From an uncultured Chlamydiales bacterium (GTDB taxonomy: Bacteria; Chlamydiota; Chlamydiia; Chlamydiales; FEN-1388), in the NCBI GenBank assembly GCA_963826935.1, contig CAWGYH010000005.1, positions 704,608 through 768,607 of the forward strand: 64,000 nt of DNA. Direction: 5' to 3'. Positions 14,721 to 58,140 of the stretch are shown piece after piece (position 1 is the first letter of the stretch; every line of letters begins with the position of its first letter). Both the position numbers and the translations under genes were made by a program. The notes beneath the pieces were generated by a model. That model did not search any database and was not told the DNA's origin. It saw nothing but the letters and a program-made list of their open reading frames with translations.

Positions 14721-14796
14721 GCTGCTCTTTGCGCATATTTAAAAGGGGCCGGGGTCCCCGAGAATCGTGCGATTTGAATCGAGCAAATCTCGGGGA

Positions 14797-15206
14797 CCCC
14801 GGCCCCAATGGTGTCAACTTAAAGAAATTTATAGCAGATCTAACCGCTGTTTTTTTCTCTCCCGAAGGGAGGGAGCTCGAGTTTGGACATTTGTAGCTTG
14901 CGCATAACGTCTTGGAGGTAAACCGTTCGGTCTCGGTCTCGGTCACGGTCTCGGTCTCGACTGTAGACGTTGTGCAGGCGAAGCTTCGCCTTTAACTAAG
15001 CATACTTCGTACACTGGAGACCGAGACCGTGACCGAGACCGAGACCGAATGGATCACCAATATGTACGTTAAGCATACAAGAACGGTGTCCGTCAAACCT
15101 TCAAATGTCCAAACTCGAGTTCTCTCCCGAAGGGAGAGAATCTGCATTTCACAACCTTTTCAGAGCTAATATAAATTTTCTTAAGTTGACACCATTGACC
15201 CCGGCC
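14797..15206. mobile_element. MITE-like element, family A copy 1 (about 410 bp)
   Basis: Terminal inverted repeats ggccccaatggtgtcaacttaaagaaatttata (left) and tataaattttcttaagttgacaccattgaccccggcc (right). The interior is a long palindrome with GGTCTC/GAGACC hexamer runs. No coding capacity. Confidence 0.75.
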
Positions 15207-15219
15207 TCTTGACTTATTC

Positions 15220-15864
15220 TTATGAAACACCTGTTTCAGGTGATTTGCTTGTCGACTCTAATAATAGAGTGGCTAATGTAGTTTTTATTAGGGGGTAGAT
15301 CAATTTAAGAATATCTTTAGGAAGTTTTGCAGGAAGAGAATTTTTATGCATTGTTGCAATAGCCACAAAGGTAAAAGGCCCTTTGGATATGTCGTCTGTT
15401 GGACGGGCAGTTAGTAGCCTATTTGCCGCTAACGTACCTTGATTCGTTAATACTCTGCTTGGAATATTTTTAAGCAGCTCTCCATATGTTCTGCGACGAA
15501 ATAATTGATTAAAAAAGAGAGGAGGATTAGTGCTTAAAAGTGGACGATAGGTTTCATCAATTGGGCCCATTGTATATTCCAATAGATTTTCTTTTAATGC
15601 CGAATCTGAATTATAAACCGCCGATATAATTAGTAAAACAACTTTAAATTGATCAGCAAGTGGCATCCCGTTATTTTCTAATTCCATTACTACGCGTTCT
15701 ATGTTCCTAGCTCGTATTAAGTCGGGGTGCTCTTCTTTTGTGAAAAAGGATCTAAATCTAAAAAAAAGCCCGGGTTTGAAGGTTTTCTCAAACTTCACTG
15801 CAACAAGGAGTAAACTTGTTTTAAGAGTAGATGTATTTATCATACATTGAAAATTTACCATCAC
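15220..15864 (-). CDS. hypothetical protein
   Basis: 214-aa ORF with no recognisable motif. Confidence 0.45.
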   Translation of the reverse strand: MMVNFQCMINTSTLKTSLLLVAVKFEKTFKPGLFFRFRSFFTKEEHPDLIRARNIERVVMELENNGMPLADQFKVVLLIISAVYNSDSALKENLLEYTMGPIDETYRPLLSTNPPLFFNQLFRRRTYGELLKNIPSRVLTNQGTLAANRLLTARPTDDISKGPFTFVAIATMHKNSLPAKLPKDILKLIYPLIKTTLATLLLESTSKSPETGVS

Positions 15865-15952
15865 TTACTCCTTGGGTAAAGCAGCGATTCTATATTGAAC
15901 AGGGAGATTCTGCCAAGGGTATTTTTAATTGAGCTATCCAGGAACTCAAGGC

Positions 15953-28991: not shown

Positions 28992-29034
28992 CATTCGTGA
29001 TAAGCTGTTCACTTATATATCAAGGAGTTACCTA

Positions 29035-38785: not shown

Positions 38786-40396
38786 GGTCCGGAACTCACA
38801 TCGTTTACACTTTAGGGAAGGCACATCATTTACACTTTTTATCGGTGCCTATAGCATGATAAATTGTTTAAATATAAATAATAGTATGTTGTTTTCCCTA
38901 ATATTTCAAGTTTATATCCGGTTTCTGAGCGTTTGAGTGAAGTAGAGGAAGCAATCTGTTTTCTGTCCGGGGTTTGGGGGCAGAGCCCCCAATTAATCCC
39001 TCAGCTTACATCCGTCTAACGTCACGTATCGATCAGTTTCGGAAGCAACCTGTTTTCTGTGCCTACTATTTTATCACTGCCCGTCTATTTTTTCTATCAG
39101 TGCTTTGTTGTCCTGCTTTTTACACCTTTTTTACCGGTATTTTTCTCCTAATTCTTCCAGGCCGTCTAAGGACTTCCAACTCGTTTTTGTGTCTGATTGT
39201 CCCCAGAAATACAGGTCCAAAATACATCTTCAGCCCTTCTTCTGTTTCTAATAACCCTACTAATTCTTCAGCTAATACTCTTCCTACATATACATCACCA
39301 CCTTTCCAAGGCATCTTTCCGCAGCTCCTTACCCTCCCCACTCTAAATTCATCGGCATATTCGGGTGCCTTCAGGCACCCGTTCCAAATTCTCAAAGATG
39401 GACTGTAGATGCTTCCTGGGGTCACTTGACCTAATGTTTCATGAGGTCTTCTAAAGTTGTAATAATTCTGAAATTTAGCTAATTCCTTTTGTTGATCCAC
39501 TAAATCTAATTCAGGAAAAACACCCTCTCGCTGCAGCGTGCCATGCATTCTTTCATGTCGGCCATTTTGCTGGGGATTGCCTGGATCTATCCATTCAGGT
39601 ATTACCCCTGCCTTAATGAGGTTTATAGAAAGCCTTGAAAGCCTTCCCACACCCGATGTTGCAAAAGGGGGTCCATTATCATTTCGCATATAATCGGGTA
39701 AACCATATTCACGAAATGTTGCTTCTAGAATAGCCCAGACATGATCTCCATCATTTTTATTTAGCTTTATACAGCGCAGCAAAAAACGGCTAAAGTTGTC
39801 TACAAGCGTCAGTGGTTCACATTTATGCCCATCTTTTGTAAGCCACCAGCCTTTAAAATCCACAGACCAAACTCTATTAAATTCGGTGGCATGAGATAGT
39901 GGATCTGTTTTTACGGGAAAACGTTTCCGAAGTTTCCGAGCATGTATAAGACCGTTTCTTGCTAAGATGTGCCCTATAGTTTTGGTAGAAGGCCATATTA
40001 TTGTTGGGTTCCTGGCAACTAAATCACCCCTCAACTTTTTCGGGCCCCATTCAGGCCATTCTAATTTTAGGTTCAAGATTGCTTCTACAAGAATAGGATC
40101 GATTGCTAGCGCTTGATTTATAGGAGCTCTGCTCCTATCAGCCAACCCTTCGAACCCTTCTTTCTCATATCTTTCTACCCATTTATAACCACTTGGCCTG
40201 CTAATTCCAAATTGATTACAAAGCGTAGCCATATCTAATTTATCTTCAAGATATAGCTTAATAAATAGTTTTCTTTGTTCCAAAACCTGTACTTCCTTCC
40301 ATGCCATGAACATCCCTTTATTAAAAAAGATATTATACCAGAAAGTGTAAATGATGTGCCTTCCCTAAAGTGTAAAGGATGTGCCTACTCCGGACC
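38786..40396 (-). mobile_element. complete IS481-family insertion sequence (1611 bp)
   Basis: About 52-bp TIRs: ggtccggaactcacatcgtttacactttagggaaggcacatcatttacacttt (38786..) against the reverse complement of aaagtgtaaatgatgtgccttccctaaagtgtaaaggatgtgcctactccggacc (..40396). Flanked by AATC on both sides (38782..38785 and 40397..40400). Confidence 0.85.
39120..40313 (-). CDS. IS481-family DDE transposase (HTH plus rve integrase core)
   Basis: N-terminal HTH ATLCNQFGISRPSGYKWVERY. Integrase core WSVDFKGWW, DNGPPFAT, HERMHGTLQRE. Confidence 0.85.
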   Translation of the reverse strand: MFMAWKEVQVLEQRKLFIKLYLEDKLDMATLCNQFGISRPSGYKWVERYEKEGFEGLADRSRAPINQALAIDPILVEAILNLKLEWPEWGPKKLRGDLVARNPTIIWPSTKTIGHILARNGLIHARKLRKRFPVKTDPLSHATEFNRVWSVDFKGWWLTKDGHKCEPLTLVDNFSRFLLRCIKLNKNDGDHVWAILEATFREYGLPDYMRNDNGPPFATSGVGRLSRLSINLIKAGVIPEWIDPGNPQQNGRHERMHGTLQREGVFPELDLVDQQKELAKFQNYYNFRRPHETLGQVTPGSIYSPSLRIWNGCLKAPEYADEFRVGRVRSCGKMPWKGGDVYVGRVLAEELVGLLETEEGLKMYFGPVFLGTIRHKNELEVLRRPGRIRRKIPVKKV

Positions 40397-40606: not shown

Positions 40607-41995
40607 ATGTCTAAGAATACTAACAAAAAACATTCTCATAAACCAAAAAATGCACTGGGCTATATTGATCCAACTGTTGCTGGGATCGATATTGGGGCAA
40701 ATTTAATTCATGTTGCAGTTCCTAATGATAACCATGGCGCTACTGTACTTGAATTTGGATCTACTACACCAGAGCTTCATAAGATTGTTAACGTACTCAA
40801 AAAAGCCGGTGTCATCACGGCAGTGATGGAAGCTACGGGAGTTTACTGGATTCCGCTTTATGAAATTTTGGAACAATCAGGCTTAATTGCAGTTTTAGTG
40901 GATGCTAAAAGCTGCAAAACTCCACCAGGGAGGAAAACAGATGTTCTAGATTGTCAATGGATCCAAACACTCTTCTCAAATGGGCTTTTAACTCCAGCAT
41001 TCCGTCCACCTAGAAATCGTATTAAACTTAGGTCATATGTACGTCAACGTCGAAGTAGCATTAAAACAAGGCAATATTCTCTTCATCATATGGAGAAAGC
41101 ATTGCAGTTGTTAAACATTAAGTTAAGCGATGTTCTAGGTGAAATCGGGGGTGTTTCTGGTATGAATATTATGAGAGCGATTGCTGCAGGAGAACAGAAT
41201 CCTAAAAAGTTGGCAGCTCTTCGTAATAAACGGGTAAAACAATCACAAGAGGCGTTTGAAGATGCTCTTACGGGCAACTTTCAAGAAGAGCATGTATTTT
41301 CACTTGGTCAAGCTTTAGATCTTTACGATTTTGCAAACAAGCAACTAGAAGAATGTGATAAGAAAATCGTAGCGGAGCTTGAAACACTTCCAGATGCAAC
41401 TAATACACCCCCACCTAAGCGTGATAAAGATAAGAAAAAGGACGGAAAATATACTGCAGCTGCAAAACCTAAGAAAAATGATCTTTCTTTTGATGCTAGA
41501 GCATTACTTTGGAGAAAGTCTGGAAGAGATTTCACCGCTTTGCCTGGGATACAAGCAAGTACAGCTTTAGTTATCTTTTCAGAACTTGGGGGAGCAGAAG
41601 TAAGCTCCTGGAATAGCGTAAAACGATTTAGCTCTTGGTTAAAAACTTGTCCCGGAAATAATGTTTCGGGAGGGAAAAGTCGCAAAAGCAAACATCAACC
41701 TTGTGCAAACCCCATTACGCAAGCGCTGCGCATGGCAGCGCTATCTGCAAAAAAGTCTACATCTATCGTCGGAGCACGCATAAGAAGCATCAGTGGTCGT
41801 GCAGACAAACGTGTGGGCATTAAAGCGGGAGCACATCAACTAAGCCGTATGATTTATCATATGTGTAAAGAAGGCTGGGAATATCATGAGAAGGGTGAAA
41901 AAGCATACGAAAAGGCATGCGAAGAAAAAAGTTTCAGAAAATTACTAAAAAAAGCCAAGGAATTTGGTTTCGAGTTAGTTCCATCTAAAAAATAA
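40607..41995 (+). CDS. IS110-family (DEDD) transposase/recombinase
   Basis: VAGIDIGANLIHVAV N-terminus, GVYWIPLYE, and the C-terminal LTALPGIQASTALVIFSELGG motif. Element ends are not determinable from one copy. Confidence 0.85.
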   Translation: MSKNTNKKHSHKPKNALGYIDPTVAGIDIGANLIHVAVPNDNHGATVLEFGSTTPELHKIVNVLKKAGVITAVMEATGVYWIPLYEILEQSGLIAVLVDAKSCKTPPGRKTDVLDCQWIQTLFSNGLLTPAFRPPRNRIKLRSYVRQRRSSIKTRQYSLHHMEKALQLLNIKLSDVLGEIGGVSGMNIMRAIAAGEQNPKKLAALRNKRVKQSQEAFEDALTGNFQEEHVFSLGQALDLYDFANKQLEECDKKIVAELETLPDATNTPPPKRDKDKKKDGKYTAAAKPKKNDLSFDARALLWRKSGRDFTALPGIQASTALVIFSELGGAEVSSWNSVKRFSSWLKTCPGNNVSGGKSRKSKHQPCANPITQALRMAALSAKKSTSIVGARIRSISGRADKRVGIKAGAHQLSRMIYHMCKEGWEYHEKGEKAYEKACEEKSFRKLLKKAKEFGFELVPSKK

Positions 41996-42519: not shown

Positions 42520-45500
42520 ATGCGCATGTCCTCAGCGGAAGCTCTCATCAGTGCGATAGATGAAGACAATCTTCCTGATATTCAAAAAGTTTCTATAAAT
42601 AAAAAAAGTGGTACAGTGCGTAGATAAAAACGGCTTGGCGCCAGTACACTTGGCTACTTACATAGGCAATGAGGGCGTTATCGAAGCATGGTTAAATGAA
42701 ATGCAGCGGCTGGGCTTTTGCGCTAATAGTGAAAATGATTCAAAAGCACCTCCTCTTGTTTTTGCTGTTGCAGCATCTTCTAAAGCTACAGTTGTGAGAC
42801 TGCTTGCAGCAGGGGCAGACCCTGCATGCGTTGATATCGATGGCTGTTCAGCGTTACATAAAGCGGCTGCTCAAAATGATTGTTCTATTGTTGAAGTGTT
42901 AACAGAAGCAATGCGGCATAAAGGAATTTCTGTAGATACCAAAAATAAAAATGGCCAGACAGCACTTTTTATGGCATCGGCAAAGAGCTCGACTGAGTCT
43001 GTAGAAAACTTGCTGCAAACGGGGGCCTACGTAGGACATGTTGATAATATGGGCGCGTCAGCTCTCTTTAATGCAGCACTTTACGGCAGGTTGAATGTTC
43101 TTAAACTTTTAATTCCAGCAGCCCGACGGCAAGGAGTCTCTCTTGACATCGAAGATAGCGACGGTACAACTCCATTTTTAATTGCTGCAGAGAAAGCAGA
43201 TGCGTCTGTAGTTGAACTTTTGCTTCAGGAGGGGGCTTCACCTACTCATGTAGATAGAAATAAAAGATCGGCGCTTCACTATGCAGCTTTGAACCGTGAA
43301 ATCCAAGGTCATTACACTAGTGATCGAGGCCATGCGTCAGAAAGGGGTTAGGATGATTGACGGTCTTGATAAATGGAACCAAACGCCGCTTATATGTGCG
43401 GTAAGATGCGATAATAAAAAGGCTGTCACTAAGCTCCTAGCTGCAGGGGCAAATATCGATCACGTTGGTTCTAATGGCCTTTCAGCACTTCACATAGCCA
43501 CCTGGCATGACGCAGCGTGGGTGGTTGACTCTTTAATTAAACATAATGCTTGTTCAACACTTCTTACACCCTCTGGTGATACAGCGCTTCGGCTTGCTAG
43601 ACAACGAGGGCATAAATACTCAGCGCTGAAAAAAAATGCCAGGGTAGTCGAATATTCGAGGGAATTACGCCAAAGAAAACTTATTGCACATATCAGCGGT
43701 GTAGCAGGGACCACTACGCTTGCTCACCCAGATAGAGATCAAGCCGCAGCCGTTACTGTATCAGTTAACGGCTGTTATCACAAAGAGACTTGGCACATAA
43801 TAAATAAAAGAATTAAACTGTTTTTCCAAAAAGATAGTATAATACCAGCAGCATGTAAAGGCGCCGCGAAAGACTATTATAATTCAAGCACATTAGTTCG
43901 TCGGTATCTGCAAGAAGATATGCCAATAATTGTTAATACAGGATATAGCGGCCGTTATATATCAGCTATTTTGTGGAGAACATATTTTATTCTCTGTGAT
44001 CGAAACTATGAAGGAAATTCCTGTCAGGTTCTGCAGCTTAATCCTCAAGATGTTGATGAATACTTTATCATGAAGTTACGTACGCTGGAAAAAAATTCAC
44101 GTGAAGAGTACATCGATTTTATTCACAAGACATTTCCTTCACACCACATCCCTCACCCCGTAGATAGCGAAGAAGCACTTCTCGAGCGATTCCTCCTCTT
44201 ACCTGTTGATCAGCACGGGACAAATACTGAACTTGCTGTATATGCACTTTTAGTTATTGAAGAAATAATGAAGTGCCCAAAGGGCATTTTTCCAACTGTC
44301 GAAGAGTTAGCGCATATAGCAAATATGCAGCGACAGGTTTTTGAAAATTGGCAGGCTTTTATGCTTGAAACGCAGATTGAGCGATACGTACGAAATCGAA
44401 ATCATAAGAGTACAGCGGCTGATCAATACCCACATGATTGGGAGCTACTTGAGCGCGTTAAGCAAGTGGCACCGAAAGCTGTTGCTGATAAAATCGATCA
44501 ATTACGCGCAAGAGCCAATGATGAACTTGTTGCAGTTGAAGTCAACAAGGCTATTCGCTTTTATCAACATGATCGCGCTTTGCAACTGCTCTCAGGCAGA
44601 GTTGCTCTTGATTATGTTGATGCTGATGGCAACACTGTACTTCATAACGCAGTATATGGCGGCAATAAGAAAATTGTGAAAGCTACAATTGCTAGTATGC
44701 AACGTACAGGCATATCTTTAGATATTCCAAATAAAAATGGTGACGGCCCCCTCATAGTCGCCTCAAATAGAGGCCACCACCGTATCGCTAAAGCGTTAGT
44801 CAAGGCTGGTGTTGATATGAGTCATTTGTCATATAACGGATGTTCTGCTCTCTATGATGCAGCTCACAATGGCCATGCGCGTGTTATTGAGGTGTTAGCC
44901 CCAGCCATGCTCCTGAAAGGTCTCTCTCTTGATGACGATCATTGCCTTATAATTGCTTCCCAAAAAGGCCATCTAGCTGCTGTAAGAGCGCTCCTAGCAG
45001 AAGGTGCAGCTGTTGATCATCTTAATGAGGCGGGAGGCTGGCCTGCGCTTTTTTACGCAGCCGAACACAACCGAAACGAAGTAGCAAAGCTGTTGATTAG
45101 CGTGGGAGCAAAAGTTGCACGTGTCGATGATAAAGGATATACAGCACTATTAGTGTCTCGTAAAAAAGGGTATAAAGAATTATATACGTGGATGAAAAAA
45201 CAGGATGAGCGGGTGTATGAGTACTCACGTGAGCTACGTCAGAGAAAACTCCTTGCCCATATGCTTTCTATAAATGAAAAAACAAGGCTCCTTCATCCCG
45301 ATAAAAATGCACAGCAGCACGTTGATGTGAATCTTAAGGGTTGGAACTGTAATGATATCTGGAAAATTATTTCCAAAAGAGGTCAAAGCTTTTTCAAAGA
45401 CCATTCAGTAATAAAACGTGCATGCCAGCTCGTAGCAGATGACGCTTCATCATATAAATTAGCCTTCGCCTATCGGCTTAACCAACCCATAATTATTAAT

Positions 45501-46136
45501 ATCGGCTATATTCGCCATCATGTTGCAGCTATTTTATGGGGGCCCTATTTCATTATATGCAATAGAGGCAATGCTAGTCATAGAGCCTCGTGCGAAGTGC
45601 TCCCACTTAACTCTAAAAAAGTTGATCCCTACTTTATTGCAGAACTCCGTAATTTAGAGAATAAAACAGCTGAAGAATACGAGAAGTATCTGAACGAGAA
45701 ATTTCCTGAGCGTTTATCTGCCGCGCCCCAGGGCAGTGCGAGGGCTCTTTTAGAACACTATCTTTCATTGTCTATGCAAGAGATGGGCAACTGTGCTTGG
45801 GCAAATTCCGAGGCAGCTATTTATGCACTTTTATTTCTCATTGAATTTATGCGCTACCCAACTGATCAGCTTCCAACGCAAGATAAATTAGAACAGATTG
45901 CCCTAATGCAAAAACAGATCTTCGCAAGCTTTCGAGAATTCATGATAGATACCCAAGTTGAACGCTATTTACGAGGTCCGAAAACCGACACTTCAGCATC
46001 GTATCTGTATCCGCGCGATTGGGACCTTCTTAATCATGTTAAAGCAAAAGCTCCGGCTTTTGTTGCCGCAAAGATTGATCAATTCAACGTCGCTGCTCGC
46101 GATATGATGAAAGCCTTAGAACTCATTAAAAAGTAA
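42520..46136 (+). pseudogene. large ankyrin-repeat protein gene broken by two frameshifts
   Basis: Three colinear ORF pieces: 42520..42627 (MRMSSAEALISAIDEDNLPDIQKVSINKK), 42608..43351 and 43296..46136. The first shift is in the A7 run 42601..42607; one fewer A gives NKKVVQCVDKNGLAPVHLA. The second shift is near 43292..43300 (LHYAALN / KSKVITLVIEAMRQKG). ANK repeats run throughout (G.T/SALH.AA..G...VV..LL..GA). Confidence 0.7.
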
Positions 46137-47439: not shown

Positions 47440-47472
47440 TCGGGGCCGGCCTGGGGTGAAACGAATGGGTGA

Positions 47473-47828
47473 TTTTCGAAGAAAACGTTGTCGAATCCTT
47501 CCCCCTAAATTTTGCTCCATTTGCTGAGGTGGTCCTACGTAGAGGATGTGAAAAAATACGTTTTCTTCGACCGCAGGTCTTTGGAGTGCGGCGATGCTTC
47601 GCCGCTTTTACTTACGACCACACACCTTTACTTCCTTACCGCCCAAGCGTACAAAACAGTTCTACATAAATCTGTAGAGGTGCTTTGTGAGGCTTAAGCG
47701 ATCTCGCGATTAAGGTGTGTGCAGAACTTAAAGCGGCGAAGAATCGCCGCACTCCAAAGACCTACAGTCGAAAAAAACGTATTTTTTCACAACCTCGTAG
47801 TAGGACCACCTCGGCAAATGGAGCAAAA
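47473..47828. repeat. palindromic repeat family B, intact copy A
   Basis: About 100-bp inverted arms: ttttgctccatttgctgaggtggtcctacgtagaggatgtgaaaaaatacgttttcttcgaccgcaggtctttggagtgcggcg pairs with cgccgcactccaaagacctacagtcgaaaaaaacgtattttttcacaacctcgtagtaggaccacctcggcaaatggagcaaaa. The structured core contains further inner inverted repeats. Confidence 0.75.
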
Positions 47829-47902: not shown

Positions 47903-49294
47903 GTGTTAAAACCATCTTTTTTTGATAATATACAGGCTATGAGCGTAAATTTTCCTCCAGTTACCCCAGGTCTCTTGCGAAGAGAGTGGGACCGCTATAT
48001 GAAAGATAGGTATGATCCTGAGGTTGCACGAAATGTCCTACGTGCGGCAACGACAATTGTGATGGATGCAACACGAGGGAAGCTGTGCGCTATTTCTAAT
48101 GAGTGTTATAGAGTATTGTATAGGCAGCTTGAGCTTGATGTTCCAAGTATGCGTGCAATTCCCAGAACATTTCTGCTTGATTTTGGAAGCGTAAAGCCCT
48201 CCCTGGTTGCCGCCGTTTTGTATAGTAGCGCCTTGTTTTTTTCCTCGCCCGAAGTTCGCTCGCTCTTTGCCGGGGCGGTTTTGGCATTTGGTCTTATTGC
48301 CATGCAAAACTACCGGAACTCATTTGAACTTGACTTTCCCTCTGTTACAGCTCTTGGCAATAGGGTGGATGGCCGAGCTCATGACGCGCGCAGTCGGACA
48401 GAGGAACATATACGGTTAAGTCTTGAAAAACAGTTTCAGCGCGCTCAAGCGCATCTTGAGGGTGAAACAGGTACTGCGCTCTACACTGCCGCTCGGCCTA
48501 TACCTCATCTACTCCATGAACAGATACGAAAGCAGCAAGATACTCCACTTTATGGTATGAGCAGTTTTCTTGGCAGCGATGCATTCTATATTGAACAAGT
48601 TACTATAGAAACTCCAAAAGAAGATTTATGCATTTCTATCTTTGGCCTCGTGCAGGGCACAAGCAGCCTCGAGGTGCAACAATTTTTCTATACCCATTTT
48701 GTAGAGGTGCTGCGAACAAAGCTAAAAGAGCATAACTATGAGATGTGGAATGCGCTAAAATGTACCTTTGTCGATCTTAAAATAAAAGAACTAGCTACTG
48801 CGACGATAGCTCTCTTTATTCGCGATGCACTATGGGTGGCAAATCTGGGCGATGCAAAGGTTTTTCTTACATCTCCTACTAATACAGTCGCACTAACAGA
48901 TGAGATAGCATGTGGAACCTATGAACAGCCGACAGCCTTTACCCGCTCTATCATCAAGCGAGGGGGCGTTATTTCACCAGATGGGTTGCTTGGGGGCATC
49001 CTGCCCACAGCCCGCGCGTTAGGTGAAAAAAATATACCCGGCCTTTCTAGTCGGCCAAAGATTATCCGCTATGATCTTTCGAATCTTGAACCAAAAACTG
49101 ACCTTGTTATAGCCTCAAAAGGTGTTTTTGCTAATGGCGCCTGTTCCGTAAAACAGGTAGCTGCAAAAGTAGAAGCCTTTAAAGATGAGCCTCTTTCGGA
49201 GATCGCAACGCAGCTTGTTGGGGCCCCTTATGATACAGGCTTTTATGGTAGCGCATCGGCCATTATCGTGAGGCTACCTGATTTAACCGGATAG
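47903..49294 (+). CDS. PP2C-family protein phosphatase with membrane-associated N-terminal region
   Basis: ATATIALFIRDALWVANLGDAKVFL (GDS/A motif region), DLVIASKGVF and GSASAIIVRL. Hydrophobic segments lie near residues 95-130. Confidence 0.6.
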   Translation: MLKPSFFDNIQAMSVNFPPVTPGLLRREWDRYMKDRYDPEVARNVLRAATTIVMDATRGKLCAISNECYRVLYRQLELDVPSMRAIPRTFLLDFGSVKPSLVAAVLYSSALFFSSPEVRSLFAGAVLAFGLIAMQNYRNSFELDFPSVTALGNRVDGRAHDARSRTEEHIRLSLEKQFQRAQAHLEGETGTALYTAARPIPHLLHEQIRKQQDTPLYGMSSFLGSDAFYIEQVTIETPKEDLCISIFGLVQGTSSLEVQQFFYTHFVEVLRTKLKEHNYEMWNALKCTFVDLKIKELATATIALFIRDALWVANLGDAKVFLTSPTNTVALTDEIACGTYEQPTAFTRSIIKRGGVISPDGLLGGILPTARALGEKNIPGLSSRPKIIRYDLSNLEPKTDLVIASKGVFANGACSVKQVAAKVEAFKDEPLSEIATQLVGAPYDTGFYGSASAIIVRLPDLTG

Positions 49295-49308
49295 GCAAGG
49301 TAGAATCT

Positions 49309-51345
49309 TTAGTACCAGCGCTTTTCAGGTGCTTGTACATTGGCTAGCAGGAATTCGGGGGTTTGGGAGTTGATCGTGAAGCCGATTTTGTGGGCTTGGG
49401 CGGCCTTGGCGAGGGCAAGAAGCTGTACTTTTCCTGCGTCCCGGTTTATTTGGGTCCACCAATTTTCCTGCGGGCCAAAGGGGCCTACCGTGTAAAACTC
49501 TTCAAGTGAGCTGATTTTTTGTAGTGCGGCAAGCCACGCTTCAGGGTCGTATTCCTCGGCAAGATAGGGCAAGAAGGTGATTTTGCGCACATGTTTGTGA
49601 GGTGCTGCTCCGATATCAGCAAGAGTTACGACGCCTTTAAGTGAGAGCTCTCTAAGTGATGGCGTATGCTCTAAAACGCATAAGGGTTCACGCTTTTCGC
49701 TTGTAGTAAGAGTCAGTTGTAGTGTTGTGAGGTTGCGAAGCGCGGGCAGACGAGGGGCAAGAGTTTTAGCCCAATGTGAGTGGCCATAAACCACGAGTTC
49801 CTCAAGGCCTTCCGGCAGGGTAGAAAGATCAAATTCAGCTTTGTCATGGGTTGAGAATGATACTCTTTTTAACGTAGCCGGAAATGGTGAGGTATGCTTC
49901 TGGTCGCCTTCTAGATATACCTTAAGTCTTTCAAGGGCAGGAGGAAGCGGCTGAACCATTGGGACTTCTGGAGCAAGTGAGGAAATCTTGAGGTTTTTTA
50001 GCTGCGATGCTCCTTGCAATGATGCAACACTGCTTAGCTCAGTGCTGACATAGAGTTTTTCTAAGCGAGTGAGCAGAGGTATAAGAGGATCTACATCCGC
50101 ATCAGATCGCCACTTATTTTGTTGTGTAGTTAAAGTAATTTTTGTAATTGGCAAATCGCCTGTAATTTGAGCACGAACAGCCTCTGGCAGCTTTGGAAAG
50201 TCTACCGAAAGTTCAAATGTATAGCCGTTGGCCTGTCGCATAAGCTGAACGAATGTATCGGTTGATTTTTCTTCATCATAGCAGGTAAGCGTGATGTGGC
50301 GTTGATCTACTTCTACTCTCCACGAAAAAGGTCTGAGCCAGTAGGTGAGGATTGAGCCCATCAGCTCATCGGCCTTCAGTTTCTTTTCTCCTTTTGTGAG
50401 TAAAAAGACTGCAGCGGTTATCTTGCCACAAAGAATTCTGAGTGCGTCAAGAGCATCGGAGCGAACATGTGGCTGCATGACGGTATAAAAGTCCTCGTGG
50501 GAAAGGATGCAGTACTTGAGTGCGAGCCCGCGACTCTCTGCATCTGGAATATGCTTTTGCAACCAAGCGACAACGCTATCTATTGAATTTGTCTTTGCAT
50601 AGTGCTCCTGAGCCCTACTCGAGCCTGCCAAAAGGCAAGAAAGCGGGTATGTTTCGCCGTCGATTGTAATATTTTTTGTAAGCGTATCAGGAGAGGGTCT
50701 TGCCGCAACGACAGCGCACAATTGAGAGCCATTAAGCGGCAAGGCTCCTTCAACTTCGAGGCCATAGTGTCCATCATGCGTTGATTCATAGTTAAGAGCT
50801 TCCCAGAAAATATCTTGGAGTTCATTTTTTTTAGCTGACGGTGTGCTTAGCGCCTCTAGCAATTGGGGAGAAATCTTCTTGGGAAGCTCGTGAGGGCGCT
50901 CATCTTGGCATTTTACGCCATAATAGAAGCGAGCAAAGTGCTGTGAGGGGTTTACGTATGCAATGCCTGCTGCCATCACAAGCGCTGGAAGAAAACTTGC
51001 GAGAAGCGCTCGTTTACTATCTTCATGAAGATCTGCCCATCTTTGAACCCTACTCCATTTATCTTTATGTTGGAAAAGTGATATTGCACGCTTAAATACC
51101 TGCCAATGTTCAGGATCTGGTTCGTCGTGCTGCATCGCCTGTCTGAACGCTTCGGCAAACCAGGAAGCCACTTCTGCCCGTTCTTCTTCAAAAAGTTGAT
51201 AGCAGTTAAAACAGTTATGCACGCTGTAGGTGCCTGCTCTACAAATTGTATTAAATACATAATCACGATCAAATTCGGGACCTGCTAATGGATTCATAGG
51301 TATGGGCTCTTTTTTTTGCAGATATTGTGGCATCTGCAATGGCAA
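49309..51345 (-). CDS. leucine-rich-repeat protein
   Basis: The C-terminal ~250 aa have periodic L-rich units (LEKLYVS, LKNLKISS, LERLKVYL, LKRVSFS, LEELVVYG, LRNLTTLQLTL, LRELSLKG). The N-terminal ~400 aa are unassigned. Confidence 0.55.
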   Translation of the reverse strand: MPLQMPQYLQKKEPIPMNPLAGPEFDRDYVFNTICRAGTYSVHNCFNCYQLFEEERAEVASWFAEAFRQAMQHDEPDPEHWQVFKRAISLFQHKDKWSRVQRWADLHEDSKRALLASFLPALVMAAGIAYVNPSQHFARFYYGVKCQDERPHELPKKISPQLLEALSTPSAKKNELQDIFWEALNYESTHDGHYGLEVEGALPLNGSQLCAVVAARPSPDTLTKNITIDGETYPLSCLLAGSSRAQEHYAKTNSIDSVVAWLQKHIPDAESRGLALKYCILSHEDFYTVMQPHVRSDALDALRILCGKITAAVFLLTKGEKKLKADELMGSILTYWLRPFSWRVEVDQRHITLTCYDEEKSTDTFVQLMRQANGYTFELSVDFPKLPEAVRAQITGDLPITKITLTTQQNKWRSDADVDPLIPLLTRLEKLYVSTELSSVASLQGASQLKNLKISSLAPEVPMVQPLPPALERLKVYLEGDQKHTSPFPATLKRVSFSTHDKAEFDLSTLPEGLEELVVYGHSHWAKTLAPRLPALRNLTTLQLTLTTSEKREPLCVLEHTPSLRELSLKGVVTLADIGAAPHKHVRKITFLPYLAEEYDPEAWLAALQKISSLEEFYTVGPFGPQENWWTQINRDAGKVQLLALAKAAQAHKIGFTINSQTPEFLLANVQAPEKRWY

Positions 51346-51528
51346 TTTACAAGAGAATTCGCTTTTATCCCTTTACTGAAATACTCTTCCTTGAAAAAAT
51401 ACACTGCTTTAAATAAGGAACCTTTTTCTTGCCTCACAGGAGGCTTCCTGCATTACCGGATCCCTCTATTTAATCGACGGCGGCCTTACTGCCTATTGAC
51501 TTGCCACCTCTCAATCATTGGCAATAAA

Positions 51529-51815
51529 TTTTCGAAGAAAACGTTGTCGACCCCCCCCCCTAAATTTTGCTCCATTTGCCGAGGTGGTCCTACGTAGAGG
51601 ATGTGAAAAAATACGTTTTCTTCGACCGTAGGTCTTTGGAGTGCTGCGATTCTTCGCAGCTTTTACTCCGACCACATACCTTTACTTCTTTACCGCCCAA
51701 GCATACAAAACAGTTCTACATGAATCTGTAGAGGTGCTTTGTGAGCCTTAAGCGATTTCACGATTAAGGTGTGTGCAGAACTTAAAGCGGCGAAGAATCG
51801 CCGCACTCCAAAGAC
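51529..51815. repeat. palindromic repeat family B, copy B (right arm cut by IS insertion)
   Basis: Colinear with copy A from ttttcgaagaaaacgttgtcga to ccgcactccaaagac. Contains a C10 run (51551..51560) where copy A has atccttccccc. Confidence 0.75.
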
Positions 51816-52123
51816 GGTCCGGAGTAGGCACATCCTTTACACTTTAGGGAAGGCACATCATTTACACTTTCAGGTATAATATCTTTTTTAATGAAGGGAT
51901 GTTCATGGCATGGAAGGAAGTACAGGTTTTGGAACAAAGAAAATTATTTATCAAGTTATATATTGAAGATAAATTAGATATGGCTACACTTTGTAATCAA
52001 TTTGGAATTAGCAGGCCAAGTGGTTATAAATGGGTAGAAAGATATGAGAAAGAAGGGTTCGAAGGGTTGGCTGATAGGAGCAGGGCTCCTATAAATCAAG
52101 CGCTAGCAATCGATCCTGTTCTT
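51816..52123 (+). mobile_element. 5'-terminal 308 bp of a second IS481-family copy (truncated)
   Basis: TIR ggtccggagtaggcacatcctttacactttagggaaggcacatcatttacacttt plus the first ~75 codons of the transposase, nearly identical to 39120..40313. Similarity stops at ..AIDPVL (52123); the listed ORF 51899..52189 then runs into unrelated sequence. Confidence 0.85.
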
Positions 52124-52124
52124 A

Positions 52125-52169
52125 AAACGGGGTCAGGCCGAAACGAAACGGGGTCAGAAACGGGGTCAG
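52125..52169 (+). repeat. three direct copies of AAACGGGGTCAG
   Basis: Copies at 52125..52136, 52146..52157 and 52158..52169. Inverted degenerate copies at 52373..52394 and 53309..53326. Confidence 0.8.
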
Positions 52170-52547
52170 GCCGGACAATGGGACATTAGCTTTTACTACT
52201 ATTCGCCTTTCTCGGTAGCGTGTCCGTGGATTTGTCATTGAAAACACAGAATCAGATGGAGGACAATAGTGGCCCGTAGAAAACGATATCACCTGCCAGG
52301 TGCAACTTTCATGTAATGCTTTGCGGGAATGCTGCAGAGCAAATATTTTTTATGTCCTGTTGCCCCCCCCCCCTGACCCCATTTGATCCCGTTTCCTCGA
52401 TCCTCTGTTCACAAGGATCTTATAGAAAACCCTGCTAGAATGTTAGCGCTCGTCGATTCTGTTTGCTAAAAAATGCACAAAAGTGAAATATAGATGCCAT
52501 CCCATAATTGGATAAAATAATTTACCAATAAAGATATATGAGGTCAT

Positions 52548-53135
52548 ATGGTCGACAATTTAAAAGAAATAGAATTCTATACCGATGAGTTAGCAAAAAA
52601 TATATACAGGACACACGAGTCAATAAACTGTTTGAAGGAGATTATAGAATTTGCTAATCATCCAATAGGTAAGCGATGCTACGGTAGCATAGTAGATCAT
52701 TTGTATAGAATTCATTTTGATACTCTTTATTTACAGATATGCAAATTTTTTGACGAAGACGATAAAGCTTTAAGTTTTTACTATGTCTTGAACCTCAGTA
52801 ATACAAAAGAACTATTGAAAAAGTATAAAAACACACAACTACTAGCCAAAATTAAGGCTTGGCGGAACAAAGTTGTGGCCCATTTAGACCGGGAGTACAG
52901 TCACCCAGTGAAACGACAGGAGTTTTATGAGAGCAACAAAACTCATTTAGACGAGATTATTTCATTTGTTAATGGGCTTCAGACATTGATTAATGAAATT
53001 TTGGAAATTATAGGATCTAATTTATCAATTTTTGGACTATGGGATAGTCCTACTCACTATCAGTTGCGTGACATGTTTGAGGGCCTTAAAGACAATTCCA
53101 ACGCTACTGCTTTTGACGTTGATCTCCAAGAATGA
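52548..53135 (+). CDS. HEPN-like (Rx4-6H motif) protein, abortive-infection type
   Basis: 195-aa, predicted all-helical, AT-rich gene. AWRNKVVAHLD gives R-x5-H at about residue 105-111, the position and context (RNK..AH.D) seen in Abi-type HEPN families. Followed by the hairpin tgatcggggcc-ggct-ggccccgatca (53179..53204). Confidence 0.4.
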   Translation: MVDNLKEIEFYTDELAKNIYRTHESINCLKEIIEFANHPIGKRCYGSIVDHLYRIHFDTLYLQICKFFDEDDKALSFYYVLNLSNTKELLKKYKNTQLLAKIKAWRNKVVAHLDREYSHPVKRQEFYESNKTHLDEIISFVNGLQTLINEILEIIGSNLSIFGLWDSPTHYQLRDMFEGLKDNSNATAFDVDLQE

Positions 53136-53474
53136 CTAACAACCGCTGCACGCGTAGTCTGTTCCCCATGATTGGCTGATCGGGGCCGGCTGGCCCCGAT
53201 CACCACCTTGACTTTAATGGGCCCACTTCATAAACTTAATGATTAAAAAAAAGGTCAGGCCTCATAGTACCATAGTTGCAAACTGAAAAAAGGGTCAAAA
53301 AAACGAACTCCCGTTTGACCCCGTTTAAAAAAATACTGCGGCGGCTTGTCATAGGATAAAGTCCCGTAGCCGAAGTAAGTTGGTATGGATTGTGTGTAGT
53401 AAATTCAATTTAACTTAGAGGGGATTGTGCCAGTAAATATTACACAAAATGAACTTATAACGGATGATTAGTCT

Positions 53475-56105
53475 ATGAAGCCACAAAGCGCTCATTATGC
53501 CAATACTCAAAGGCAATCTTTAAGTGCACATCTTTTTGCTGTTGGACATGTCGCAGAATTGTTAATAAAACGACTAATGCCAGAAATAAAACCTTTAGCT
53601 GATGCCGCATTTATTGCTGGTTGTTTACATGACCTTGGAAAAATTGATTCTCATTTTCAGACTTGGGTAATAAATCCTAAACAAAAGAATTTTATTGCGG
53701 AAGATGGACAACATATTGATGAAAAGTTTAGCTTTGAAAAACATCCAAGGCATAATGAGCTTTCTTTATTGCTGTACAATCTTTTGAATCAGCCAGAAAA
53801 CAAAACCATTAATAGCCAAAATAAACAATCAATAGAGCATTGTATATATTGGCACCATGCCAAACCGTTCCGGAAAGACAAAGACTATGTAACCCTCAGT
53901 GATATATATTCAAACTTTTGTAACAATATTAAGGGGCAAGATTGGGAAAATTTCAGTAAAAGTGCATTTACCTGTATCCAGGAAATCTCGGAGATAGACT
54001 TACGGTACCGAGCATCTGAAGTGTCAATTTTAACCAAATTGATCCCTAAAGATTTAGTGATAGATAACGACAAAGTGAACGACTTAAACAAAACTTTATT
54101 GCCGGCATATAAAGAGTACAATAATCAAATTGAAAATATCGAAGAATATGTACGCCATATTAAAAAAAATGCAATAAATAATATTTTGCGAGCTGCTCTG
54201 ATTACAGCTGATCGCATAATTTCTTCTTTAGATGCTGAAGTATTGTTGAAACATATCGCTCATCGAACATTAGATGAGATAGTTTGTGAGGAATTGAAAA
54301 ATGAATCGATGCTGTCCGAGCATATACAACAATGCTTAAATTATTTTGAGCATAAATACCCTATTAGTGAGCGCAATTTAGAGCAAAAAGCTGCTGCAGA
54401 ACGCCTTCAAGGAGTGAGTAATGTTGGCGTTTTAGCCGGTGCTGCCGGCTGTGGTAAAACTAAAATTGCTTTAGAGTGGGCGAAGTTGAAAAAAGCGAAT
54501 AAAATTATATGGATTTGCCCTCGCGTTCAGGTATGTCAGGGTATCTTTAATGATCTTATTTCAGAAGCTTATTTGCCGAATGCGAAAGTGGAAATAAACA
54601 CTGGTGAATTCAAATTTACAAATAGCTGGGAAAGTCCTACCGATGAAGGTGCATATTTTTCGGGCGATGTGGTTATTACAACGATTGATCAAGTGTTGGG
54701 TAATATTATTACCCACAAAAATGTAACGGGGTTGATCGACTATTTAAATGCACATGTCATTTTTGATGAATATCACGAATACATAAATATGCCAGCATTT
54801 AATTTATTGTTTGCTGAATTGGTGCAGTGTAAAAAAGAATTAGATAGCGGTGCCAATATATTATTGGTCTCTGCAACACCAAATTACTATTTTACTAAAA
54901 ATTTTCTTAAAATAGATGATTTTAATATTATTAAAATGCCATCTTTTAATAAAAGCGAATACAAAATTAATTTTGTCGAATATGATGAAACATTAGAGGA
55001 TGATAGTAATCCATTGTATAAGGCTCAAGCAGGAGTGGTATTTGTCATTAGTAATACGGCAACTACGGCCCAAAAAAGCTTTATTCGAAATCATACTGTA
55101 GAAAATGCAGTATTACTGCATTCAAAATATAAAAAAAGTGACAAAAAGAATTGGTTTAACGAAGTGTTCGAATCATTTAAAAATGATGGCACGCGTAAAT
55201 TTGACGTGTTGCGCAGTGGGCCGATTGTTCAAGCCTCTTTAAATATCAGTTGCGACCACATGATTACTGAATTAACCAATGCCGAAAACTGCTTGCAGCG
55301 ATTGGGGCGATTGGATCGATTTGGGGTAAACAAAAAAACCAATCTCTTAAAAATTACTATTCCTGAAAGTTTACATGACGGTAAGGGCAGTGGGGCTGCA
55401 GCAAGGTATTTATCCCGACTGTACATATTCAATTCGTCGCGAGCATGGTATGATTTTTTGCGATGTAAACTTTCTGATAACTCTTTCAAACTGCCAGAAA
55501 TCTACCAGTTGTATGAAGAGTTTTATAATCTAGATAATACCATTAAAAAGATCGAAAGCGATTTGTTAAGTGCCTTGAAAAAAAGCGTAGTTGTCATTAA
55601 GGATAAAGTTATTGATCCGATTGCGATTCCTTCTAAAAAATCCCAAAAAATTGGAGTTTTAAAAATAAGTAAAAATTCTTTACGAGGAGGCAATCGATTT
55701 GTGCAAATGGCTGTCTGCGAGGTTAACGCAGAAAACAAGCTAAATTTCATTGAACAATACGCATATTCTTTTATCGAAAGTGAAACAGTGGACAATTTGA
55801 CTGCTTCGATTGAAAAAATTCAAGGGTATGGTGATAGTAATAATAATCTATTAGCACATATGGCAAAGAAACATCACAATATGATTGATGGCGCTAAGAA
55901 AGCTTATAAAGACATCGTCTTGCTTACTCAAGCATTGTCGCCAGAGTTTCCAATTTATTTAAGCTATACACCTTCTGATTTAGCTAAAGTAGGTGGAGAG
56001 TCTAGTCGCCATTCCGAGGCGATGTATTATGTGGTTACCGACAAGCAACCTGTTGGAGCGATGTCGGTGAAATATTTATTTAATAATGGAGTATATAATG
56101 AATAA
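53475..56105 (+). CDS. cas3: Cas3 HD-nuclease/helicase, not fused to Cas2
   Basis: The N-terminal HD domain starts within 20 aa of the start ([29 protein letters not shown]). Helicase motif [12 protein letters not shown], motif [10 protein letters not shown], motif III VSATP. 876 aa, with no Cas2-like N-terminal extension. Confidence 0.85.
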
Positions 56106-57081
56106 GGTTACAGGTATTAAGAGTGTTGATTTTAAAATCGTTTCTCGAGGATATGGCGTAGTGAATTGGAACGGGCCCACAACCTTGGTAGGCGATGACG
56201 GTAAAAATGTGGATAACCATACTTTGCCCAAACTGCGCGGTTACAGCAATTTATCCGGTAAAGTAAAGGACGAGAATGGCTACAAATATAAAAAACAAGC
56301 TACTGATATAAATTTCAAAGAAACACCATTATATATTAGTCAAAATTGTATTCGTCATCATTTATTCCGCGATCAAACTTTTGATTTGCATTTTGCTGGG
56401 AAAAAAAATTTAGGGCTTGTGTTGGCTTCAATTACAGGATTGGTTCGTGGTTTTGTGGTGCCCGAGAGCCAATGCAAACGGACAAGTCCATTATTGCTAG
56501 AGGATTTTGTTGATCAGTTGGGTAATGGCAATTTTGAGCAAATGGGACGCTCTGGCTCTAAAGCAAAAGGTACAGATGAAGAAGGTAAAGCAATTGCAAG
56601 TAATTCTTTTTTTTCAAAAACCACTTTCGGTGAAACAGAGTACATCTCTTATGGTTCGATAAGCATTGAGCAACTGCAATTCATTTCTCTAGATAAAAAA
56701 TTCGATCGCGCGGCCATGATTATTGATGACAGTCAGGGTGAAGTGGTTGCTAAAGCTGTGCAAGATTTTATCCAACAACTTGACCCAAAACGTAACCCGA
56801 AAATTACTTTTCATAACAACTATGTTCGTAAAGGCACGATTTTTGAAGAAGGTGAGGTGGGACTTTTATTAGACGATGAAGCTGTCGATATTGTTGTTAA
56901 TGAAACTTTACGAATGATCAAAGAGCTTAATATCCGACAAGCTAAAGGCTATATGTACGTGCACACAATTGAGGAAGACTACAATGATAGTCACAAAATG
57001 ATGCGCATTAAACACTTTCCAAACGAAATAGAGCAAAAATCGGATAAATCTTATGCTGTCTATTTTTATGCAAAATCATAG
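56098..57081 (+). CDS. cas7fv: Cascade backbone subunit, Cas7fv-like (assignment by position and size)
   Basis: First of only two genes between cas3 and cas6f. About 327 aa. Start ATG 56098 (ggag 6 nt upstream) overlaps the cas3 stop. Gene order matches the Cas8-less type I-F variant (cas3-cas7fv-cas5fv-cas6f). No family motif could be verified by eye. Confidence 0.55.
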
Positions 57082-58140
57082 GTGATAATTATGACATTGC
57101 ATATTCGTGTGAAATATGAAGCTTCTTGGAGAAATTCGTTTTTGGAGGGTTCGAATGACGAACCTTTGCCTAAAAGCGGAAGAAGTTTTGTTGGTTCTAT
57201 GACTAGTCTTAAGGAGGATGGGAATTTTAAACAACGAGAAGTAAGCAAAAATACAGTAATGGGAATCTTATGTCGTTTGATTGGTGATCAACGTAAATTA
57301 TATCAAGCAAGGAAAGAAGCAAATTACTACTTTGCTGACATGGAGGACAAAATTTATTTTCAAGATGTAACATCTAAACAAATAAAAAATAGTGAGCTGG
57401 TTTATGTTAGAAATATATCAGGTAGTACAGATCAAAATTCTTTTACAGGAATGATTAAAGCAAATGACGCAGCCTTTACCTCTGGTTTTTCACAAGAGCT
57501 ATGGGCTGTTTTATTTCTTGAACTGGATGAATTATTTGAGTTTATTCAAAACAAAGAAAAGCGAGTTAGTAATAAAGAAATATTTAATCCATTAGGTGTA
57601 GTTGATCAGTTGGAAAAAATCAACAAAATGAAGTCAATTGAGGTTGTCGATGGTGTAGGATCAGCACTTCAATCATTAGAAGGAAAATTTTCTATAGGCG
57701 ATGACGCTGTTTCGTATACATTAGACAACAAAGGGCGCATTAAGCCTATTGTATTTTACACTTCAGCTTTGTATCTTCAGATTGAGCGACTAAGCAAAGA
57801 TAATGATCTAAGTGAAATTCTCACTAAAAAGGGTGGTCTTAGCGGCATTTCTAAAAGAGGATTCACAAAGAAAGATTTTATGGATCGATATACAACGGGA
57901 AAAAAGAAATTGATTTTCGGTAATCCGTACCTTTTAAAAGAAAGAATAAAAGGACAGGGTGAACTGACTTCAATACTGACTAAGGCCTCTGGTGTCTTAG
58001 AGATCCAAATTGACATTCCCAGGGTGAAGGCCGATGAATTAAAATACATGATCGAATGTGCAGGGGTGTCCAGTTTTTATTTGGGGAAAAAGGGCTTGGC
58101 CTATGTTGATAATATACACTTTATTGAGAGTTGCATATGA
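57082..58140 (+). CDS. cas5fv: Cas5-like Cascade subunit, Cas5fv-like
   Basis: The N-terminal region LHIRVKYEASWRNSF...NTVMGILCRLIGDQRKL resembles the Cas5 signature (beta-strand, then ..s.i.GlL.a.lG..r). GTG 57082 or ATG 57091 abuts the cas7fv stop. The gene's stop overlaps the cas6f start (ATGA). Confidence 0.6.
   Translation: MIIMTLHIRVKYEASWRNSFLEGSNDEPLPKSGRSFVGSMTSLKEDGNFKQREVSKNTVMGILCRLIGDQRKLYQARKEANYYFADMEDKIYFQDVTSKQIKNSELVYVRNISGSTDQNSFTGMIKANDAAFTSGFSQELWAVLFLELDELFEFIQNKEKRVSNKEIFNPLGVVDQLEKINKMKSIEVVDGVGSALQSLEGKFSIGDDAVSYTLDNKGRIKPIVFYTSALYLQIERLSKDNDLSEILTKKGGLSGISKRGFTKKDFMDRYTTGKKKLIFGNPYLLKERIKGQGELTSILTKASGVLEIQIDIPRVKADELKYMIECAGVSSFYLGKKGLAYVDNIHFIESCI

Follow-up and report, generated by a model that had tools for sequence, protein, structure and literature searches.

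Why does a gene with the signature of a HEPN RNase lie directly upstream of cas3 in a CRISPR-Cas locus that has no cas1? HEPN partners accompany type III and type VI systems, and the 2025 classification describes no such partner in type I systems (PMC12669027). The gene lies in a stretch of 64,000 nucleotides from an uncultured Chlamydiales bacterium (the window), and its position admits two readings, both proposed in the initial annotation of this DNA: an independent gene that is merely co-located with the cas operon, or an accessory effector that serves the cas1-less system. Is the protein a HEPN protein at all? If it is, do homologues of the gene travel with type I-F systems elsewhere? And how did it come to occupy this particular place?

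A HEPN gene of the AbiU2 family

The open reading frame at 52548-53135 (+) is uninterrupted from its ATG start to its TGA stop and encodes 195 aa, as annotated, and direct reading of the sequence places a GAGG Shine-Dalgarno motif at 52540-52543 (+), 4 nt 5' of the ATG. The gene is AT-rich, as had been noted, with a G+C content of 34.2% compared with 43.7% for positions 1-51000 of the window and 35.6% for the cas operon. The cas3 ATG at 53475 follows in the same orientation after a gap of 339 nt (about 340 bp in the earlier estimate). Is there a partner gene? Apart from the HEPN gene and the tail of a truncated IS481 transposase ORF, which ends at 52189, the interval 52124-53474 holds no ORF longer than 56 aa, in agreement with the annotation, which had seen no antitoxin-like ORF nearby.

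The proposed HEPN identity started from the motif R-N-K-V-V-A-H. The motif is present, with codons at 52863-52883 (+), but its numbering was off by one: the homologue alignment and the AlphaFold2 (AF2) model place it at residues 106-112, not at 105/111, as an Rx5H signature that sits at the C terminus of helix 97-111. Taken alone an Rx4-6H motif is no evidence, because at least one occurs in 58% of residue shuffles of this very protein; its weight comes from conservation. A Pfam search gave a clearer answer. The profile PF18734 (HEPN_AbiU2) matches the protein with an E value of 7.8e-12, scoring 45.5 bits where the family's gathering score is 26.8, over protein residues 46-157 (profile positions 39-174 of 193), and it also matches 34 of the 39 homologues described below. 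The annotation had pointed to the HEPN clan, with AbiU2/AbiV-type families as examples to check, and this is where the protein falls. With the HEPN protein as query, PADLOC, NCBIfam and PHROGs returned nothing significant, and a weak Pfam match to ToxN (E 0.012, 16.2 bits) stays below that family's cut-off of 25.

How large is the family around this protein? Among 5.8 billion proteins, a word-indexed search picked out, besides the protein itself, a single relative of 56% identity (P0002). A two-sequence profile, run with HMMER exhaustively over 1.84 billion cluster representatives, returned 39 proteins at E<=1e-3, 11 of them at E<=1e-10; with 39 representatives among 1.84 billion, this sub-branch of AbiU2 is sparsely populated. 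A search of genome, metagenome and viral contigs with the two-sequence alignment found no relatives, and tblastn of the collections of plasmids and phages was negative. All 38 aligned homologues that cover positions 106 and 112 keep R106 and H112. D69 (codon 52752-52754, +), an acidic residue just after helix 46-67, is kept in 38 of 39 and is invariant in sub-alignment A3. S76, K101, A111, Y127, N130 and K131 are strongly conserved too, N130 and K131 being present in about 80% of homologues.

The AF2 model built from the 39-sequence alignment is confident (pLDDT 92, pTM 0.86) and all-helical, which bears out the earlier prediction of a helical protein. It has ten helices (residues 2-36, 39-44, 46-67, 77-84, 87-94, 97-111, 115-118, 120-130, 134-154 and 168-183). 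Foldseek found nothing below E 0.1 for this model in PDB and BFVD. The weak, non-significant matches include the HEPN toxins HepT (6m6w, 6m6u, 5yep) and 8xdj with TM scores of 0.3-0.5, those of HepT type reaching 0.49 when normalised by the target, and a sequence-profile search of the PDB produced coiled-coil noise only. With no significant structural neighbour, the case for the HEPN fold is made by the sequence profile together with the secondary-structure layout. HEPN proteins carry a conserved Rx4-6H where core helix 3 ends and, as an optional feature, a conserved acidic residue in or near core helix 2; here the motif lies at the end of predicted helix 97-111, and D69 directly follows helix 46-67. 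Judged from its sequence, the 195-codon gene genuinely belongs to AbiU2, a known branch of the HEPN superfamily of predicted RNases, where the curated profile, the residue conservation and the layout of its secondary structure all place it.

A type I-Fv neighbour and the scars of a rearrangement

What is the system next door? Pfam matches identify a type I-Fv (I-F2) interference operon at 53475-58727 (+), composed of cas3 (53475-56105; HD and helicase, no Cas2 domain), cas7fv (56086-57081), cas5fv (57082-58140; PF20158, E 7e-62) and cas6f (58131-58727; PF09618), all on the + strand. Two CRISPR arrays with the I-F repeat GTTCACTGCCGCATAGGCAGCTTAGAAG follow at 59048-60187 (+), one of 10 repeats (59048-59615) and one of 4 (59978-60187). 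Rfam recognises the CRISPR repeats only, with no match in the HEPN region, and no viral contig matches spacer 1 exactly. Neither cas1 nor a trace of it was found anywhere in the window, so the system is cas1-less as described. The Cas5fv protein is 51-61% identical to its homologues in 40 related I-Fv loci, across which Cas3 and Cas7fv are also conserved and Cas6f more loosely. Most of these relatives carry a cas1 of about 325 aa directly before a cas2-3 fusion of about 985 aa, and residue 1 of the window Cas3 aligns with residue ~107 of these fusions. Protochlamydia naegleriophila was rejected as the source of the window, because its published CRISPR system is of type I-E, with cas1-2 (PMC5010888).

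Where did the adaptation genes go? Part of the answer lies between the HEPN gene and cas3. Using the Cas2-3 N-termini of six relatives as queries, tblastn detects (E 1e-13 to 1e-18) a Cas2-domain pseudogene stub of a former cas2-3 fusion at 53329-53471 (+), which begins at residue ~56 and carries a frameshift near 53400-53420. Residues ~56-89 are encoded by 53329-53427 in one frame, with the translation KNTAAACHRIKSRSRSKLVWIVCSKFNLT and then a stop, and residues 82-135 by 53406-53564 in the cas3 frame, in which a TAG at 53469-53471 stands two codons 5' of the present cas3 ATG. The left border of the HEPN segment is a 5' fragment of an IS481-family element (51816-52123, +), whose homology stops at 52123. 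This fragment is 97% identical to 40396-40089 of an intact copy at 39120-40396, and its 96-aa ORF matches the Pfam families HTH_28 and LZ_Tnp_IS481. The HEPN gene is contained in a segment of about 1.2 kb (52124-53328), with a truncated IS481 copy on one side and a truncated cas2-3 on the other, and because of this bracketing we conclude that the adaptation module, meaning cas1 and the 5' end of cas2-3, was lost by rearrangement exactly where the HEPN gene sits.

The segment carries a further mark. A motif scan found three direct copies of AAACGGGGTCA(GGCCGG) at 52125-52175 (+), two degenerate inverted copies of AAACGGGGTCA beside a poly-C run at 52368-52394 (-), and inverted copies (TCCCGTTTGACCCCGTTT) at 53309-53326 (-) that abut the cas2 stub, whose start lies within 3 nt of the inverted copy at 53316-53326. 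Counted as AAACGGGGTCA itself, the direct copies span 52125-52168 and the degenerate inverted ones 52374-52394. With at most one mismatch, AAACGGGGTCA matches the whole window 8 times against 0.63 expected, and six of these matches flank the HEPN gene. What kind of motif is this? Its tandem form, AAACGGGGTCAG, occurs at more than 120 foreign loci in very diverse bacteria. At 13 of 120 loci examined, a gene for an IS200-like Y1 transposase (PF01797, RAYT-type) lies near the motif cluster, within about 50 nt in most cases and at most about 225 nt away, and is the commonest recurring neighbour. The many diverse loci and this recurrent neighbour identify the motif as a REP-like repeat. Neither the remainder of the window nor 307 kb of chlamydial loci nor the loci of other HEPN homologues contain it, and the I-Fv loci have a single isolated copy, in L029. 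The idea that such repeats flank the island as a whole was rejected, as only the copies at 52125-53326 rise above noise.

Is the loss of adaptation genes linked to the arrival of the HEPN gene? Three other relatives lack cas1, from Acinetobacter (L012), Gallibacterium (L024) and Janthinobacterium (L048). Their breakpoints differ (Cas2 residues ~49, ~93 and ~110) and housekeeping genes lie upstream, which argues that loss of the adaptation genes is recurrent and unrelated to HEPN.

Could the HEPN gene nevertheless be transcribed together with cas3? The annotation had given it a hairpin terminator of its own. The stem-loop is real: folding and a self-inverted blastn match place a G+C-rich hairpin with an 11-bp stem and the core GATCGGGGCC-GGCT-GGCCCCGATC at 53177-53202 (+), and the 131-nt stretch containing it (53130-53260) has a folding z of -2.95. 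The terminator part of the claim is weak, as the hairpin is followed by ACCACCTTGACTTT instead of a T-run and was not called by a terminator scan; it is not a canonical terminator. Lacking a T-tract, it makes read-through from the HEPN gene into cas3 possible. Between the hairpin and cas3, a consensus scan marks a promoter-like site, TTGACT-17-TAAACT, at 53208-53236 (+), which is weak on its own. The block that holds it (53191-53335) resembles 59860-59980, the sequence preceding CRISPR array 2, with a local alignment score of 58, where shuffles reach 22 +- 4 and the best of the control segments 40. A promoter-like site in such an array-2-like block fits separate transcription of cas3.

Homologues of the gene and their neighbourhoods

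If the HEPN protein served the CRISPR-Cas system, the two should be found together elsewhere, and co-occurrence was examined in both directions. Forty I-Fv loci, mostly from Gamma- and Betaproteobacteria, were retrieved with the window Cas5fv, and all ORFs of at least 60 aa within +-10 kb of cas5fv were probed with a profile HMM made from the 39 homologues, which recovered every known positive. A HEPN homologue was found in 0 of these 40 loci. The opposite direction gave the same answer: none of the seven informative homologue neighbourhoods holds cas genes. The closest homologue (P0002), from a sister Chlamydiales lineage, is solitary and adjoins an rlmF-like methyltransferase gene. Others lie in an integrase/RepB-primase element that also carries genes for AbiEii, ParD and VapC (P0003), beside a Fic-MazE-like pair (P0004), behind an XRE-type HTH (HTH_3) gene and before a Gp49/HI1420 (HigB/HigA-like) pair (P0005), directly behind a Fic/DOC gene (P0006), on an ankyrin-rich contig near AbiEii/DUF6088 (P0007) and among small unknown ORFs (P0008). 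No partner family recurs across these contexts, and a close co-oriented upstream gene is found only in P0005 (HTH_3/XRE) and P0006 (Fic/DOC). The HEPN-cas arrangement itself was seen once more, in a 6.9-kb contig of an independent read assembly (ERR10755938); as that contig is identical in sequence, it is probably from the same organism. With both tests negative, the association between the HEPN gene and a type I-Fv system is unique to this genome. Of the two readings proposed at the outset, these counts favour the independent, co-located gene and speak against the accessory effector.

Does the gene belong to the chlamydial genome in which it was found? The window is chlamydial in character, with a PyrG that is 89-90% identical to those of Chlamydiales metagenome-assembled genomes (MAGs) and with many ankyrin, WD40, Ser/Thr-kinase, PP2C and LRR-like genes. 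The rlmF gene beside P0002 is 90% identical to that of JTS-AC372, one of the same Chlamydiales MAGs, in which rlmF is present without a HEPN gene. The presence of the HEPN gene at one rlmF and its absence from the other mark it as a variable accessory gene within the chlamydial clade. Homology between the window locus and the P0002 loci is limited to the ORF. An integron cassette was considered and rejected, because this ORF-only homology leaves no conserved flanks with the closest homologue.

What the HEPN protein may do

Which function would fit these observations? In our assessment the locus probably holds a stand-alone AbiU2-type HEPN gene, autonomous and horizontally mobile, whose product would be a latent RNase of the abortive-infection or addiction type and which came to lie beside the I-Fv operon by rearrangement. 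HEPN proteins of Abi and toxin systems are generally modelled as latent, dimeric, metal-independent endoRNases (PMC3710099, PMC3632139). By homology, the window protein is likewise predicted to be a metal-independent endoribonuclease. It would probably work as a homodimer, as characterised HEPN enzymes do, in which the two R106-x5-H112 motifs would build the active site with the help of D69 and of the conserved patch F126-Y127-x2-N130-K131. Latent in healthy cells, it would cleave cellular RNA, invader RNA or both upon sensing an invading element or upon loss of its own control, and the expected outcome would be an arrest of growth, a behaviour of the abortive-infection or addiction type. With a ribosome-binding site of its own, the gene would be autonomous, neither a subunit nor a dedicated effector of the I-Fv system. 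The local rearrangement would have truncated the IS481 copy on the left and removed cas1 and the first ~55 codons of cas2-3 on the right, with REP-like repeats at both junctions.

But is an intact ORF enough to assume an active defence protein? A serious rival is that the gene is an orphan or a regulator similar to the lactococcal AbiUii (AbiU2), its partner (an AbiU1/AIPR-type nuclease, a Sel1-repeat protein or restriction-modification genes) having been lost; alone it would give no defence, and it may be decaying. AbiUii is dispensable for phage resistance and lowers the resistance given by AbiUi (PMC13064643), and it is not toxic in E. coli (PMC3985639), and it is because of this behaviour that the rival stays serious. 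AbiU2-family operons with a Sel1-repeat, a restriction-modification or a second HEPN gene have been described (PMC3710099), and in the window no partner ORF is present and the locus is scarred by the truncated IS481, the truncated cas2-3 and the REP-like repeats. Set against this are the intact ORF with its good Shine-Dalgarno sequence and all family-conserved residues, the lack of any single recurrent partner family in the contexts examined, and a closest homologue that is just as solitary. On balance we find an orphaned or regulatory gene unlikely, if still to be reckoned with. An addiction-module toxin that stabilises an acquired island, rather than a phage-sensing Abi protein, would need an antitoxin that has escaped recognition, such as a small RNA or a peptide. 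Homologues do occur among toxin-antitoxin genes, two of them adjoining Fic/Doc genes, single sub-threshold matches to antitoxin-type Pfam families (dnstrm_HI1420, UPF0175) appear in two family members, and the sub-threshold ToxN match points the same way. That match remains under its cut-off, however, neither an MNT-type nor any other antitoxin ORF is adjacent, Rfam has no match in the region, and TRF detects no ToxI-like tandem repeat, just a 12-nt unit in 2.1 copies some 380 nt upstream. A ToxIN-like (type III) system was rejected, as there is no array of ~36-nt repeats directly upstream and ToxN scores 16.2 of the required 25 bits. A toxin of an addiction module seems quite improbable to us.

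What, then, of a link to CRISPR-Cas? The HEPN protein could be an accessory effector of the adaptation-less I-Fv system, taking the place of cas1 and cas2, co-transcribed with cas3-cascade and backing up DNA interference by an abortive or RNA-level response. The geometry is suggestive: the gene shares the orientation of cas3, lies 339 nt upstream of it at the very place once taken by cas1 and the 5' part of cas2-3, is separated from it by a hairpin without a T-run and has a similarly low GC content. The second assembly with the same arrangement adds little, its sequence being identical and its source probably the same organism. The comparative evidence runs the other way, with no homologue within 10 kb in any of the 40 related I-Fv loci, cas genes in no homologue context, housekeeping genes and other breakpoints in the three further cas1-less relatives, a promoter-like site between hairpin and cas3, and no HEPN partner of type I in the 2025 classification (PMC12669027). 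We therefore regard an accessory effector as very unlikely. Its most far-reaching form, in which, within this chlamydial lineage, a HEPN RNase functionally replaced the lost adaptation module and, co-transcribed with cas3-cascade, serves as an RNA-cleaving abortive backup of a frozen, spacer-limited interference system, strikes us as the least credible reading, although if true it would make this the first HEPN-coupled type I CRISPR-Cas unit. A HEPN gene beside a CRISPR-Cas operon is here no new CRISPR accessory; its position is explained by decay of the adaptation module and local rearrangement.

How does the stand-alone gene that we favour compare with known systems? CRISPR-linked HEPN RNases such as Csm6/Csx1 (type III) and Cas13 (type VI) share with it a HEPN signature beside a CRISPR-Cas locus. 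In contrast to these, the window protein has no CARF or SAVED sensor, the locus has no Cas10 to produce cyclic oligoadenylates, and the gene is not conserved beside any of the 40 I-Fv loci. To our knowledge, type I-Fv systems have no signalling output. HepT of the HepT-MntA (HEPN-MNT) module is likewise a small HEPN toxin with Rx4-6H, and it is among the best, though non-significant, Foldseek matches. The differences are that no MNT nucleotidyltransferase gene is adjacent here, that there is no match at the sequence level, and that the window protein has additional helices and exceeds HepT by about 60 residues. The single-gene Abi proteins AbiD/AbiD1, AbiF, AbiJ and AbiV are also stand-alone HEPN proteins from defence or mobile regions, and RNA cleavage on infection has been proposed or shown for them (PMC3710099, PMC13064643). 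They belong to different HEPN families, none of which matched here in Pfam, and AbiV lacks the canonical motif histidine that the window protein keeps.

The nearest relative in name is AbiU2/AbiUii of Lactococcus lactis LL51-1, with the family profile PF18734. The two are alike in their match to the HEPN-core profile, in Rx4-6H, in being small and all-helical, and in residing in bacterial accessory genomes. Unlike the lactococcal AbiU locus, no AbiU1/AIPR-type gene adjoins the window gene, whose neighbours are the IS481 fragment and cas3, and its host is an uncultured member of the Chlamydiales, with the protein in a sparsely populated sub-branch. We know of no demonstration of stand-alone defence by lactococcal AbiU2, nor of an Abi function for any protein of the AbiU2 family. 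As neither defence nor toxicity has been demonstrated for AbiUii alone, the function of the window protein does not follow from the family name.

The window protein adds a well-conserved and confidently modelled member to the AbiU2 family of HEPN proteins, from a host of obligate-intracellular type (Chlamydiales), in whose genomes defence and addiction genes are rarely described. Should it turn out to be an active RNase toxin, this would be the first demonstrated function for the family. For mutagenesis, D69, R106 and H112, invariant in the family, offer themselves as clear targets, as do the highly conserved N130 and K131.

Remnants of a cas1/cas2-3 locus

How does a type I-Fv system come to lack cas1? 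The initial annotation described the cas operon (cas3, cas7fv, cas5fv and cas6f; 53475-58727, + strand) as cas1-less, and this is borne out, no cas1 having been found anywhere in the window. Directly 5' of cas3 there is a pseudogene stub (53329-53475) of what was once the Cas2 domain in a cas2-3 fusion. The stub has its first residue at about 56, its frame is broken by a frameshift, and a TAG lies immediately ahead of the current cas3 ATG. The apparently minimal system has therefore arisen by decay from an I-Fv locus of the standard cas1/cas2-3 type, and its Cas3 is now re-initiated from an internal Met. The I-Fv loci retrieved with the window's Cas5fv include other cases. Both cas1 and the Cas2 domain are also missing from loci of Acinetobacter calcoaceticus (L012), Gallibacterium salpingitidis (L024) and a Janthinobacterium MAG (L048), with breakpoints unlike one another and housekeeping genes upstream. 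The I-Fv subtype thus seems to lose its adaptation module recurrently while retaining Cas3-Cascade.

The spacer between the HEPN gene and the cas operon carries a further similarity. The segment running from the HEPN hairpin to the cas2 stub (53191-53335) is significantly similar to 59860-59980, just 5' of CRISPR array 2 (alignment score 58; shuffles gave a mean of 22 and a maximum of 45), and the blocks common to both are CCTTGAC(T/C)TTAATGG, AAAAAAGG(G)TCAAAAAAA and CCCCGTTT. The two segments may represent a duplicated leader-like or promoter element that took part in the rearrangement. Array 2 (59978-60187) has four repeats, partly degenerate, and is separated by a gap of ~360 nt from array 1 (59048-59615), which has 10 perfect repeats. 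The last repeat and a ~53-nt trailer are present after both arrays (59588-59668 vs 60160-60240, 93% identity). Together the arrays hold 12 spacers of 32-33 nt each; an exact match to the first spacer was sought in IMG/VR and none was found.

Mobile-element remnants and REP-like repeats

Upstream of the island, the DNA is pieced together from remnants of mobile elements. An intact IS481-family element (39120-40396, - strand) is accompanied by a truncated second copy (51816-52123, + strand), an IS110-family transposase gene lies at 40607-41995, and a repeat of ~290 nt occurs at both 47472-47761 and 51528-51815 (94% identity). Around the HEPN gene itself the motif AAACGGGGTCAG forms tandem or inverted clusters (52125-52175, 52368-52394 and 53309-53326). 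What is this motif? It occurs in tandem in more than 120 loci from many phyla (Lysobacterales, Verrucomicrobia, Planctomycetes, Marinobacter and others), and an exact 12-mer is common to different phyla. Among 120 such loci that were examined (L141-L260), 13 have a RAYT-type gene, encoding an IS200-like Y1 transposase, near the cluster, mostly within ~50 nt, and AAACGGGGTCAG is therefore a REP-like repeat family. In one locus (L150) the cluster interrupts an IS110 transposase gene. The window itself contains no RAYT gene. Between the REP-like clusters, ~170 nt 5' of the HEPN start, there is a run of 11 C (52366-52376), which may be either prone to slippage or sensitive to assembly.

Host type and gene neighbours

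Eukaryote-like genes are densely grouped at 12270-17635, 27375-31381, 43296-46136 and 47903-51345. They encode two Ser/Thr kinases, a PP2C phosphatase, two WD40 proteins, of which one carries a fused GNAT domain, an ankyrin-repeat protein of 946 aa and an LRR-like protein of 678 aa, a set typical for amoeba-associated Chlamydiales. None of the 40 best Cas5fv relatives in the reference-genome collection is chlamydial, these being mostly proteobacterial. As for the HEPN gene, a Fic/Doc-family gene directly adjoins the HEPN_AbiU2 homologue in two of the seven informative neighbourhoods (L007, 8655-9272; L010, 2-649), an adjacency that may reflect chance inside TA-rich islands or a real linkage.
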